Below, in pieces: positions 37,677 to 41,332 of a stretch of 41,682 nt of DNA. The position numbers were made by a program, and so were the translations under genes. The DNA lies in IMG/VR virus record IMGVR_UViG_3300032327_000851, positions 1-41,682 of that record; one strand, given 5' to 3'. Numbering within the stretch: the first letter of the stretch is position 1; every line of letters starts with the position of its first letter. Below the pieces are notes generated by a model. It saw nothing but the letters and a program-made list of their open reading frames with translations, was not told the DNA's origin and did no database searches. Origin of the DNA: a virus (taxonomy: Duplodnaviria; Caudoviricetes).

Positions 37677-38591
37677 TCAATCATCATCGTCATTCATGCT
37701 ATTGAAGAATGCAAGATCATCATCATCGTCATCAGTTGCAGCAGCAAAGTTTGGTGCTGGCTTTGACTTGAATGAAGGTTCTGCCTTCTTTGGGGCTTCA
37801 ACCTCTTCAGAAGTATTCTTCTTAGGGGCAGTAACACCATTTAGGCTAAGAACAAGGTTCAAGCGATCCTGAAGCTGTTCATAGGACTTGAACTTGTCTG
37901 GTGTGACCAAATCCTTAAGCGAGTATTCACTATCGTAAATCTCCTTGAGCTTCTTATCATCATCATATAGTGGTGATGGCTTATCAAACTCTGAAAGATC
38001 ATAGTTTGTGTTACCATCAACTTGGCGAATGCGAAGCTTGAAGTTAGCACCTGTCCATAGATCGAATGGATTGAATGGTTCCATATCTGGGAATGGAGGG
38101 AACATAGCATTCTTCAACTTGTCAAAGATTCTTGAACCATAGCGGAAGAGAAAGACCTTGCCTTCATTCTCAGGGTTGGCAGGATCACTTACAACATAGA
38201 TGTTTGAGTGATAATTAAGCTGGCGCTTCTGCTCACGTGCCTGTGTGCGCTCTGGTCCCTTATCATTCTCTGAAGAATTCCATAGAATGGTATTGTAATC
38301 AGAACAAGGATCGGGTAGCTTAATTGTTGATAGACAGTTTTCGATATACCACTGTCCGGTTGGTCCCTTGAACCCATGGGTGAAGATACGTGCCCAAGGA
38401 TCAGCCTCATCTCCGTCTGCTTCAGGGCTTGGTAGGAAGCGAATGACAGCATAGCCATTCTTGGCCTTATCGGTGGCACAGGACCAGTAGCGTTCGTCCT
38501 TGTAGCTAGCCTTTGAATTGAGCTTATTGACTTGCTCAGATAGCTTGTTTAGTGATTCTTGTGATGAACGCTTTAGATTTGCAAATGACAT
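37677..38591 (-). CDS. gp32: Single-stranded DNA-binding protein gp32
   Basis: MSFANLK, NGYAVIRFLP, HGFKGP.GQWYIENCL.T, PFDLW.GANFKL and NYD.SEF motifs; acidic tail. Confidence 0.97.
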   Translation of the reverse strand: MSFANLKRSSQESLNKLSEQVNKLNSKASYKDERYWSCATDKAKNGYAVIRFLPSPEADGDEADPWARIFTHGFKGPTGQWYIENCLSTIKLPDPCSDYNTILWNSSENDKGPERTQAREQKRQLNYHSNIYVVSDPANPENEGKVFLFRYGSRIFDKLKNAMFPPFPDMEPFNPFDLWTGANFKLRIRQVDGNTNYDLSEFDKPSPLYDDDKKLKEIYDSEYSLKDLVTPDKFKSYEQLQDRLNLVLSLNGVTAPKKNTSEEVEAPKKAEPSFKSKPAPNFAAATDDDDDDLAFFNSMNDDDD

Positions 38592-38666
38592 ATATTTTCT
38601 CCGTATGTTTGCTTGTTTGTTTAACGTATTTTTCGTATTTTAAGTTTGACAGATATCTGTCATTTT

Positions 38667-38674
38667 TATTTATA
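38667..38674 (-). promoter_or_regulatory. Late promoter TATAAATA upstream of gp32
   Basis: Exact consensus, flanked by inverted repeats at 38647-38662 and 38675-38703. Confidence 0.7.
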
Positions 38675-38703
38675 CTTTTTTTACACAAATCATGTAAAAA
38701 AAG

Positions 38704-39279
38704 TTACTGTTCAGCAAGTATATCTTTGATGATCTTTTTCATCTTAGGCTTATCATATTTGATAAACTCGCTGTATTTCAGACATTTGTCTCTGGTTGTT
38801 GGCCATATGATGGTGTCTGAAATCTTCTTATCCCAATAAGGGAAGAAGTTCATTATGTCGTTGAGAATAGTCAGTGTTTCTACACTGATGCTCCCACGAC
38901 GAAATTGCTTTAAAAGGATTGGATGTTGTCCGTTATTGACAACAAAGTAGCCTTTGAAATCTTCAGAGATTTGGACTAGCTCATTTTGAAAGTTATATGT
39001 CAGCGATTGCACTCGGCGCTGCCACTTGACATATCTTTCTTGTGATTCGTCATTGAACAAATCACGTACCCATATATCACTTTCCAGCGAATTTGCAATA
39101 AGAAAGTTGAGTAAGTCTGGTTGTTTTGCCAGCTTTTCGAAAAAATATCTATCTTTTCTTCTATTGAAAGAGGCTTCGTCCGCTCTTACTTTACCATTAT
39201 ATCTTACATAACTATAATTAGATTTGGCGAAGTGCCACTTAATCCCCAAGTACATCTTATAAGCTTCAAAACCAGTCAT
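38704..39279 (-). CDS. gp59: Helicase loader gp59
   Basis: YK.YL.IK.HF...Y....Y.G, F..RKD.YFFEKLA and HP..LK......IS.ET..IL motifs; upstream of gp32 as in T4. Confidence 0.92.
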   Translation of the reverse strand: MTGFEAYKMYLGIKWHFAKSNYSYVRYNGKVRADEASFNRRKDRYFFEKLAKQPDLLNFLIANSLESDIWVRDLFNDESQERYVKWQRRVQSLTYNFQNELVQISEDFKGYFVVNNGQHPILLKQFRRGSISVETLTILNDIMNFFPYWDKKISDTIIWPTTRDKCLKYSEFIKYDKPKMKKIIKDILAEQ

Positions 39280-39295
39280 AATATAATCCTATTAG

Positions 39296-39538
39296 TTAAA
39301 TAGGAAGCTTAGCAGACCTTGGTAGAAAATGAAGCTCTTCGCCCTCCATTTGTAATGATGACTTCATTCTATAGTTACCAGTGATCATTGCAGCAGCAGT
39401 CTCTATCTCAATCTCATTTTTTTCGCAAAAAAACACTACTGCATCAATATATTTCATATTGTGCCTTTTTACTAAAATGTTAATTTCTTTATAGAACTTG
39501 TTTGCATTAATGGCTTTGGCTAACTTTATTTCACTCAT
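39296..39538 (-). CDS. gp33: Late transcription coactivator gp33
   Basis: F..EI..LV......YIDA...FCE.N.IE.E and L.FLP...KLPI motifs; gp33-gp59-gp32 order. Confidence 0.88.
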   Translation of the reverse strand: MSEIKLAKAINANKFYKEINILVKRHNMKYIDAVVFFCEKNEIEIETAAAMITGNYRMKSSLQMEGEELHFLPRSAKLPI

Positions 39539-39541
39539 CAA

Positions 39542-40093
39542 CTATCCTCTATAAAATATATGTGCGCCAATACTGGCAACCTGTGTTAAATTCCATCTAG
39601 GATGAACATATTTCGCATGATAAAATAATCCGCCGTGTGTTACATCGTACACTTTATTTAGATAGACACGCTCAGCGGCTGCTCGTGCTCTTCTAAACAT
39701 ATCTGCATCACGGATTTTGTTTTTACCTTGGCAGACCCAAGAAAATTGACATACACCATGGTTTTTCTGTCTAATAACAGCACATGGTGTGTCGGGGAAC
39801 CTACTATCCTTAGTACGGTTCATAACTACACTCGTAACAGCAATCATGCCTCTTTCAGATTGATTTCCTGCCTCAAAATATGCATTTCGGGCTAGACAAT
39901 TTATCTGACGTTCTTCATACGGTGTAATTGTTTTGTTGTGTACAGTATTTTGTTCTACTTGTCTAGAACTTTCTACTGTTGGTGATGGTTTTGCAGGAGT
40001 TGATATTGCTGCTGCAATAATTGATACCATAATCAAAAATGTAATCACTATGTTTTTTAAAGTATATGTTTTATTTTTTGTTAAGTAAGTCAT
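39542..40093 (-). CDS. SleB-like cell wall hydrolase (Hydrolase_2) with N-terminal hydrophobic anchor
   Basis: CLARNAYFEA, AV..VVMNR....FP.T.C.V..Q, CQFSW, FYHA.YV.P.W and IG.HIFY motifs; ATG 40093 preferred over TTG 40108. Confidence 0.92.
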   Translation of the reverse strand: MTYLTKNKTYTLKNIVITFLIMVSIIAAAISTPAKPSPTVESSRQVEQNTVHNKTITPYEERQINCLARNAYFEAGNQSERGMIAVTSVVMNRTKDSRFPDTPCAVIRQKNHGVCQFSWVCQGKNKIRDADMFRRARAAAERVYLNKVYDVTHGGLFYHAKYVHPRWNLTQVASIGAHIFYRG

Positions 40094-40370
40094 TTGTATT
40101 CTCGTCAAATAATGACTTTGGTACTACTGAAAGCGTTATAGCGTATCTCAACGCCTACTATCAGTAATCTATGAGAAGATACAATGAAAAATAAATTGGT
40201 ATCTTCTACATCCATCCCTCCATTACTAGGAATGCAAAATCATTAGTGTTTGGTCGGTGTTTATGTTGTTTTTCGCATAAAGTGATTTTATGCTATTTTT
40301 GACATAAACGCTTTCTTAGCCACATAAGGACTTGAAGCTGTTGTAATGGTAATGGAGGTAGATTACCTCC
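40087..40370 (-). ncRNA. Candidate structured RNA or cis-regulatory leader, family not recognised
   Basis: At least seven helices found by eye in a stretch with no credible ORF, starting just after a CATAAATA motif. Confidence 0.6.
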
Positions 40371-40378
40371 TATAGAAA

Positions 40379-40386
40379 TATTTATG
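40379..40386 (-). promoter_or_regulatory. Late promoter variant CATAAATA
   Basis: 8 nt upstream of the first hairpin of the structured region. Confidence 0.55.
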
Positions 40387-40488
40387 TAATAAAAATTTCA
40401 TACAAGTATATGTATACTACTTTTGTATGAATGTCAACAGATTGTAATGCGGTTCATCGCTATTACGAAACGGTTCATCGATTAAGAC

Positions 40489-40532: not shown

Positions 40533-41012
40533 TTAGATAAGTTCAAAGCCGATAACACTATCAACCTTGAAGTTGCGAACCTTGATTTCCTCTTCAAGAC
40601 CCTGACCATTGCTCTTACGAGCAGGAATGAAGGGCTTGAGAGCATCATATTCAATGACGTTGTTAGCAGCATCGACATAGATAGGAATGCCGATACGACC
40701 TTCCTCAATGCACTTGATGTAAAGCTGACCGTTATTGTCAAGGAGAGCGTTACCAACCATCTGACCATAAGTCATGCTCTTGGCTTCAAAGTTGGCGCTG
40801 TTGCCTTCCTTGATGCGCTGCTCATTCACACGATACTGATAGTCATCATTCATCGTCACCTTGATGGTGTTGATCTTGAAAACTTCAGTGTGTGGATTGG
40901 GGATGCTCTTGGTTTCAACATCCTTCTTGTTCATCTTGACCGCAGTCTTGGTCTGAAGGATTGCCTTGGTGTTAGGCTTCACGATCTTTGCAAATTCAAC
41001 AATGTTCATCAT
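40533..41012 (-). CDS. Hypothetical early protein
   Basis: GGAGA RBS, own consensus sigma70 promoter and terminator. Confidence 0.8.
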   Translation of the reverse strand: MMNIVEFAKIVKPNTKAILQTKTAVKMNKKDVETKSIPNPHTEVFKINTIKVTMNDDYQYRVNEQRIKEGNSANFEAKSMTYGQMVGNALLDNNGQLYIKCIEEGRIGIPIYVDAANNVIEYDALKPFIPARKSNGQGLEEEIKVRNFKVDSVIGFELI

Positions 41013-41113: not shown

Positions 41114-41332
41114 TTATTCCTTACCGTCGATAAATCCTTTGAGCTTTTTAGCTTCTGCTAAGAGTTCATCTGTTGTAGGATATGTTGGCACTTCAGTTAG
41201 AAATGAAGTGTTTTCGTTGATACGTGCCTTTTCGGCTGCGTTTGACCATTCAATATGGAACTTTTCTGATGCTCTTTGCTGAGCAACTTTGATCATCTCC
41301 ATGCGTAGGAGATATGGGGTATCTTGTGACAT
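41114..41332 (-). CDS. Small conserved phage hypothetical protein
   Basis: TPY.LR.E....A and YPT..E....A..L..FI pattern; AAAGGA RBS; own promoter and terminator. Confidence 0.8.
   Translation of the reverse strand: MSQDTPYLLRMEMIKVAQQRASEKFHIEWSNAAEKARINENTSFLTEVPTYPTTDELLAEAKKLKGFIDGKE

Follow-up and report, generated by a model that had tools for sequence, protein, structure and literature searches.

A covarying leader RNA with a predicted second fold precedes cell-wall hydrolase genes in uncultured T4-like phages

Genomic context

The window, i.e. the whole stretch of DNA analysed, comes from an uncultured T4-like phage and is a linear fragment of 41.7 kb (21% complete). Its minus strand, which carries all window features described here, encodes a Hydrolase_2 / SleB-like cell-wall hydrolase of 183 aa (39542–40093, ATG at 40093–40091) identified by PF07486 (E 1.8e-23), phrog_938, and SleB 4f55. 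The protein retains a conserved Glu aligned with a Glu of SleB 4f55, presumably the catalytic residue. A hydrophobic N-terminal segment is present in this protein and in 38 of 40 hydrolases of RNA-bearing loci, and the enzyme is likely exported. Judging by family labels (phrog_938, 'endolysin'), it would be a lysis enzyme.

The gene for the late-transcription coactivator gp33 (39296–39541, PF16805) adjoins the hydrolase stop codon, followed by those for the gp59 helicase loader (38704–39279) and the single-strand DNA binding protein gp32 (37677–38591), the latter with its own 112-nt gap upstream. Across the family, gp33 lies at most 2.5 kb downstream in 36/37 loci, nearly always directly after the hydrolase stop, and leader control over gp33-gp59-gp32 is thus possible in principle. 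The A-rich gap before gene 32 (38592–38703) contains a hairpin and a TATAAATA late-promoter motif; a 300-nt segment around it folds at a z of about -6, making it a candidate gene 32 autoregulatory leader.

Upstream of the hydrolase lies the longest stretch of the window free of ORFs of at least 70 aa (322 nt), as a reading of the sequence alone (the sequence-only reading) had noted. Beyond it are two ORFs without Pfam or PHROG match, at 40533–41012 (159 aa) and 41114–41332 (72 aa). A perfect sigma70 consensus promoter (41068–41040) belongs to the 159-aa ORF alone, and a terminator-like hairpin (40519–40499) comes after this ORF; in the window phage, the hairpin would shield the leader from transcription entering from upstream.

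The named sources of sequences bearing the leader RNA are freshwater metagenomes. A permuted tmRNA was found inside the fetched flank of relatives at 14 of the 20 loci scanned, and as 12 of these 14 match the alphaproteobacterial model, the phage host is likely alphaproteobacterial.

Promoters and leader start

A T4-type late promoter, CATAAATA, lies at 40379–40386 and would place the leader start a few bases downstream; the T4 consensus is TATAAATA in the accessible part of PMC3014915. The motif TAAAT(A/T) occurs at the same distance in 38/43 homologues, compared to a background of 2.6%. A sigma70-like promoter candidate is located further upstream (40409–40437; TTGACA and TACATA separated by 17 nt, the -10 box lacking the last T), with a similar motif upstream in 10/43 homologues against a background of 4%. 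Just upstream of the TTGACA box, a 10-bp direct repeat with a 21-nt period (40480–40450) has the appearance of a binding site for an activator or repressor of the hydrolase-gp33 operon; similar direct repeats are found in loci L003, L004, L005, and L036. No terminator-like site was detected between the leader RNA and the hydrolase in the window.

Folding and comparison with catalogued RNAs

The region 40087–40386 folds at -75.8 kcal/mol (z -5.53), and none of 200 dinucleotide shuffles folded as well. In a rough scan of 70 minus-strand segments of 300 nt with 12 shuffles each, the leader ranked fourth (z -3.84), behind a segment overlapping the 5' part of the leader and a terminator, the gene 32 leader, and a segment inside the hydrolase, so that folding energy alone would not single it out.

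The leader RNA belongs to no Rfam family and is a real, uncatalogued RNA, in line with the earlier remark that it matched none of the RNA classes named there. Rfam 15 covariance models gave no match to the window at the gathering threshold or at E≤10, matched only tmRNA and tRNA elsewhere in 20 homologous loci, and at E≤10 found nothing matching the leader RNA in L024 and L083. There was no Rfam model match to RF00379, known self-cleaving ribozymes, group I/II introns, or RNase P, and ARAGORN reported no tRNA or tmRNA in the window. Sequence words resembling hammerhead, TPP, cobalamin, and group I elements were dropped, as their element order is wrong and they receive no Rfam score. The leader contains no conserved reading frame: the length from the pseudoknot strand to the ATG falls into all three frames (22, 11, and 10 of 43), and the longest ORF within the leader ranges from 18 to 78 codons across homologues.

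Distribution of the leader RNA

Of 80 loci found through the hydrolase, 40 hold the RNA (nhmmer), and L018 was added by a covariance model at 24.6 bits. Searching 51 of 64 parts of the collection with the RNA motif only returned at least 119 loci, comprising 10 chance pattern matches, 36 with too little flank, and 73 scorable loci; among the matches listed, Hydrolase_2 is the next gene in all 73 of the latter. Another viral pattern gave four loci, three of which are the leader RNA, a metagenome scan gave two (one cut L018-type copy and one chance match), and four DNA contig sets contained strain variants as well as part of another member of the family.

The hydrolases have diverged to about 45–60% identity from the window hydrolase. 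In a tree of 54 hydrolases, from which L190, L421, and L427 were left out (protein cut off), a branch with support 99/93 sets the RNA-bearing genes, along with four RNA-less ones, apart from the rest; the deep order of this tree is unsure owing to long branches. The four hydrolases without the RNA (L042, L044, L045, and L048) form a nested clade, and the RNA is therefore dispensable. A late-promoter-like motif is retained in this clade; upstream of its hydrolase, L042 carries a short folded leader (1386–1530), and a small ORF takes the place of the leader RNA in L044, L045, and L048.

Blastn against 50,697 isolate phage records returned only four chance matches shorter than 30 nt, and the isolate phages IME-SM1, X1, JG004, and pf16, which have related hydrolases, all lack the RNA. 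Of about 830 loose-pattern matches in bacterial genomes, model R1 found nothing in the 120 listed, which came from 10 of 64 parts of the collection; this does not imply absence there. The same reservation applies to a sample of 151 genomes of the class to which a Sphingobium genome belongs, scanned with strict filters and no positive control, and to three single genomes (two viral controls matched); the RNA was found in neither set.

In one set of phages, a second conserved multi-hairpin RNA of about 95 nt lies just upstream of the leader promoter (plus strand; L024:2497-2592, L022:1627-1722, L016:1868-1965, L026:2356-2452, L027:2381-2478, L033:1756-1852); the window does not contain it. It has double changes in 5 of 18 predicted pairs (n = 6 sequences) and no Rfam match in the five of six loci scanned (L033 left out).

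A conserved, covarying fold

Comparison of the homologues, as the sequence-only reading had proposed, revealed a conserved and covarying structure, hereafter fold A. It comprises the stems P1, P2, and P3, a four-way junction of P4–P7, and a 7-bp pseudoknot between 40349–40343 and the P5 loop. In an alignment of 36 non-redundant sequences (near-duplicates above 93% identity dropped, L034 left out owing to its insert), 94.5% of cells are paired and 32 of 64 pairs show double changes (n = 36). None of 500 shuffles scored as high and slid controls reached 41–48% paired, although the model was drawn from the same 36 sequences and is therefore favoured over the slid controls. In the window, fold A is the predicted minimum, with a P4 probability of 0.94.

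The 5' hairpin P1 (40354–40370) has double changes in 4/5 pairs and is 89% paired. It is followed by the 5' strand of the 7-bp helix (40343–40349), in which 99.6% of cells are paired; on the hydrolase tree, one pseudoknot pair changes four times and another five times, always with both sides altered. P2 (40311–40337), a stem with an internal loop, is nearly invariant (99.7% paired, no double change among the 36), and one of its base pairs changes from A-U to U-A in L034 and to G-C in L018. P3 (40259–40309) is a variable stem with an inserted lineage-specific hairpin, double changes in 5/5 pairs, and pairs that change 14–15 times on the hydrolase tree. Next comes J3/4 (40248–40258), a conserved A-rich linker and candidate tertiary or ligand contact. 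The unpaired bases of P2 and J3/4 are near-invariant.

P4 closes the four-way junction with its 5' strand at 40235–40244 (97% paired, double changes in 2/10 pairs) and its 3' strand at 40111–40120. Within the junction, the P5 hairpin (40213–40234; double changes in 4/7 pairs) presents loop bases 40226–40220 to the pseudoknot, the P6 hairpin spans 40171–40211, and the variable stem P7 (40121–40169) has double changes in 12/12 pairs. P7 is capped by a UGNRA loop (40150–40146) that resembles a T-loop; this cap is missing in 6/36 sequences. The Shine-Dalgarno sequence (SD), spacer, and ATG of the hydrolase occupy 40091–40103, and since the ATG follows P4 by 16–19 nt in 42/43 homologues, fold A would leave the ribosome site free.

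Divergent copies in L018 (2546–2688) and L034 (432–605), both on the plus strand, carry an extra helix in the P5 loop with unchanged pseudoknot strands and can help to delimit the minimal core. The switch helices are retained in both L018 and L421, which lose parts of the P2/J3-4 consensus, with the J3/4 consensus not kept in L018.

The strings checked from the earlier reading are all present in the window where it placed them (the promoter octamer, the 5' hairpin, the 10-bp pair, and the pairings within 40207–40174, 40166–40125, and 40118–40087), but several of its helices gave way on comparison. Its 10-bp long-range helix (40358–40349/40226–40217) is not conserved, as two pairs are mismatched in 26/36 homologues; it exists in the window because the linker of this lineage is 1 nt shorter and the same heptamer is present in two copies, the second of which (40349–40343) is the conserved partner of 40226–40220, as a pseudoknot. 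The stems proposed inside 40309–40259 do appear in the predicted fold, yet the inner hairpin is the lineage-specific insert, and the suggested CUUA/UAAG stem is replaced by a conserved AGUC/GGCU pairing. P4, P5, the pseudoknot, and the anti-SD role of P6 described below were not part of that reading.

A compact pseudoknotted fold with invariant bases might also be expected of a ribozyme or a processed trans-acting ncRNA that merely adjoins the hydrolase in an ncRNA-rich region, and both the permuted tmRNA near 14 of the 20 scanned loci and the adjoining RNA of about 95 nt would suit such a setting. This alternative, already raised in the sequence-only reading, nevertheless found no support and appears improbable: no Rfam ribozyme matches, no terminator-like site separates the RNA from the gene, the distance to the AUG is fixed, and the RNA was never seen before another gene or away from the hydrolase start (in the 73 scorable loci, among the matches listed).

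A second fold with anti-Shine-Dalgarno pairing

Unconstrained folding of the homologues yielded a second global structure, fold B. P2 and P3 are shared by both folds. In fold B, the 7-bp helix is nested and is extended by pairing of the P1 3' strand (40356–40351) with 40216–40211, the 5' side of P6 has the P1 5' strand as its partner, and J3/4 pairs partly with the P4 5' strand. The 3' side of P6 (40173–40184) is predicted to act as an anti-SD strand that pairs with 40103–40094. The extension helix 40356–40351/40216–40211, which was also picked by RNAalifold, is kept in 34–36 of 36 sequences per pair, shows no double change, and is lost in L034. The earlier proposal that the 5' hairpin competes with a long-range pairing thus stands as far as the competition is concerned, with these conserved partners taking the place of the 10-bp helix.

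Base pairing between the P6 3' strand and the SD plus spacer is supported statistically in most homologues, though not in all. In energy calculations, pairing of the anti-SD strand with its own start site is stronger than that of swapped strands in 35/43 sequences and than that of shuffles in 40/43, with means of -10.1 (own), -9.3 (swapped), and -6.0 kcal/mol (shuffled), i.e. a small own-versus-swapped margin of 0.8. Identical counts, 35/43 and 40/43, were obtained for the P1 5' strand and its partner on the 5' side of P6. Compared with 100 SD-bearing start sites of other genes in the same phages, the own start site exceeded the median in 39/43 and the 95th percentile in 16. Where the P6 strand departs from the consensus (nine sequences), the own start site pairs better with it than with the consensus strand in seven, and in the four RNA-less sister hydrolases the anti-SD pairing reaches only -4.4 to -7.4, compared to -9.7. 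The test failed or was weak in L135, L421, L008, L032, and L036, and in the window, where fold A is itself the predicted minimum, the pairing is modest (-8.7; 16% of control start sites are as good). Since the 43 sequences are related, these tests are not independent and kinship inflates all counts.

The sequence-only reading had placed the AUG in a terminal stem, and the P4 3' strand can indeed pair alternatively with the AUG region. This stem is only partly conserved, however, reaching -4 kcal/mol or lower in 23/41 sequences (n = 41, L038 and L046 left out owing to register); the own linker is better than shuffled ones in 27/41, and selection on codons 2–3 gives no signal (20/41). Pairing of the P6 3' strand with the SD is the better-supported OFF element. 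The pseudoknot strand itself was rejected as an anti-SD, with own pairing above shuffles in 27/43 by only 0.7 kcal/mol and no such advantage in the window. A possible kissing interaction between the P2 loop and the linker before the SD, absent from the window, exceeds swapped pairing in 26/43 and amounts to 6–7 bp in a few sequences.

Should fold A be the sole functional state, as an mRNA stabiliser, a translation enhancer, or a protein landing pad, the anti-SD complementarity would be a by-product of purine-rich sequence. Covariation is much stronger for fold A than for the long helix specific to fold B, and a pairing energy of about -6 to -7 kcal/mol with the P6 strand is typical of purine-rich start sites in any case. 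Still, such a static structure seems rather unlikely to us, as it leaves unexplained that the start site tracks P6 changes in 7/9 divergent cases, that own start sites exceed the control median in 39/43, and that the U of one P1 pair stays U in 12 sequences in which its partner is G, suggesting that this U has a second partner.

A proposed translational switch

Comparison across the phages establishes the predicted fold A, its fixed position before the hydrolase, and the late-promoter motif, and the idea of a new cis-regulatory RNA with alternative pairing before the hydrolase is borne out by conservation, fixed position, covariation, and the predicted second fold. We infer that fold A would be the ON state and fold B the OFF and resting state. 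The reading we favour, with a probability of roughly one half, is that the leader may act as a two-state translational switch held ON by a ligand, for which a protein and a metabolite appear about equally probable, and is otherwise OFF.

In the favoured model, the transcript would fold into A first, with P6 hiding the anti-SD strand and the ribosome site accessible directly after P4. When transcription has passed the SD, a rearrangement to B could follow, opening P1, P4, P5, and P6; the P1 3' strand would then lengthen the 7-bp helix, and the freed anti-SD would cover the SD. In about half of the phages, the local AUG hairpin may provide a second route to OFF. Most speculatively, a ligand present late in infection would bind the core of P2, J3/4, and the pseudoknot and stabilise A, such that the hydrolase is translated only late, and the gp33-gp59-gp32 genes behind it could be transcribed earlier than the hydrolase is translated.

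The predicted energies fit this sequence of events. For a transcript ending just past P4, before the SD, nested A is more stable than B in 37/43 sequences, and at full length B lies below nested A in 42/43, by 6.8 kcal/mol on average, with the pseudoknot omitted and the SD forced open in A. These are nearest-neighbour energies without pseudoknots, and forcing the SD open in A builds in part of this gap. The omitted pseudoknot term, about -11 of stacking minus a penalty, is about the size of the gap, and folds A and B are therefore predicted to lie within a few kcal/mol of each other, with A made first.

The same energies would fit a ligand-free kinetic timer equally well. Here, the transcript would be translatable until A relaxes to B, limiting the hydrolase dose. 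P1 hides the strand that starts fold B, and the divergent L018 and L421 keep the switch helices and not the linker consensus, both of which suit a timer. A precedent exists in the maturation-gene leader of MS2, where, in the portion of PMC4615214 available, an inhibitory fold, in which the SD is paired to an upstream strand, is held back by a metastable 5' hairpin. The leader RNA is predicted by its energies to follow the same delayed-inhibition logic, albeit without double changes in its long helix, but MS2 is an RNA phage with a leader of about 130 nt, whereas the leader RNA belongs to DNA phages, measures 230–310 nt, and, unlike the MS2 5' UTR, contains a pseudoknot, two stems that persist in both folds, and a relay of three strand exchanges. 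A timer would not, however, explain the near-invariant unpaired bases of P2 and J3/4 among phages with diverged hydrolases, and a weak SD would presumably limit the dose more simply. We regard this alternative as possible, at considerably lower odds than the ligand-held switch.

A ligand is favoured because the unpaired P2 and J3/4 bases are near-invariant across diverged phages, and because gp33-gp59-gp32 transcripts share the leader and would fold like late ones unless a trans factor differs. Loss of the P2/J3-4 consensus in L018 and L421 argues against one strict ligand pocket.

A start-site switch, with long early transcripts OFF and late-promoter transcripts ON, would have its model in T4 gene e. 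According to the text of PMC3014915 at hand, the leaders of T4 gene e (lysozyme), soc, 49, and I-TevI form a single hairpin that is removed by transcription starting inside it. Like the leader RNA, T4 gene e-type leaders, as far as that source goes, combine a late promoter with a structure that covers the SD/AUG of a lysis-type gene, and the late promoter (38/43) and the sigma70-like motif (10/43) would supply both kinds of transcript. In the leader RNA, though, the late promoter precedes the whole structure instead of lying within an inhibitory stem, and up to 60 nt of 5' extension shifts the balance toward B in only 5/43 sequences and toward A in 26/43, which argues against a switch of this type. 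We thus consider it the least probable of the alternatives.

Relation to known leaders and candidate RNAs

The leader RNA resembles translational riboswitches with an anti-SD platform in being a large structured 5' leader with a pseudoknot, conserved unpaired bases, and predicted alternative SD pairing. Its consistent sense-strand 5' position and its covarying domain with conserved unpaired bases are riboswitch-like as well. Accordingly, one could imagine a phage-specific riboswitch in which the core of P2, J3/4, and the pseudoknot recognises a small molecule of the host, for instance a cell-wall precursor or nucleotide messenger, an idea we advance tentatively and with no more confidence than the kinetic timer. 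The ydaO-yuaA riboswitch (RF00379) responds to c-di-AMP, and COG3773 is, on our assumption, the SleB family. In the accessible sections of PMC3766115, ydaO is described as regulating COG3773 wall-remodelling enzymes. An upstream position relative to cell-wall remodelling genes is the trait it has in common with the leader RNA (73/73 loci, among the matches listed). The two differ in that the leader RNA gives no match to the ydaO model, has a different helix order, and was found only in phage contigs.

A pseudoknot in the leader controls translation of T4 gene 32 autoregulatorily, according to the excerpted literature. The leader RNA is likewise a pseudoknotted leader of a T4-like phage, and gene 32 lies three genes downstream here. 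In T4, a small pseudoknot and an unstructured AU-rich tract directly precede gene 32, whereas the leader RNA precedes the hydrolase.

Five candidate structured RNAs before Hydrolase_2 genes are contained in the available portion of Fremin et al. 2023 (PMC10690425). One of these, DNAVirus_262, has 45 nt and 31 sequences, of which 30 are from freshwater and all 31 lie within 25 bp of a Hydrolase_2 gene (same partial source). Compared by description only, it may be the 3' end of the leader RNA, of which it would cover at most a 45-nt piece. The candidates of that study reach 151 nt, and its main text, to the extent available, does not contain the words hydrolase, endolysin, or riboswitch. A targeted full-text literature search, with most subscription papers outside its coverage, found no description of the leader RNA.

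Implications for phage lysis timing

To our knowledge, the timing of exported wall hydrolases in lytic phages is poorly understood outside holin systems. A covarying two-state leader of 280 nt would be a new timing device and a new class of riboswitch-like RNA, and as a reporter would allow strands of each fold to be disrupted and repaired independently, both states are accessible to experiment. A kinetic timer would make the leader a DNA-phage equivalent of the MS2 mechanism. Were the leader to bind a metabolite, it would represent a riboswitch class encountered to date in phage contigs only; should the host small molecule proposed above be its ligand, a phage riboswitch would time wall hydrolysis and, by coupling, perhaps gp33-driven late transcription according to the physiological state of the host.
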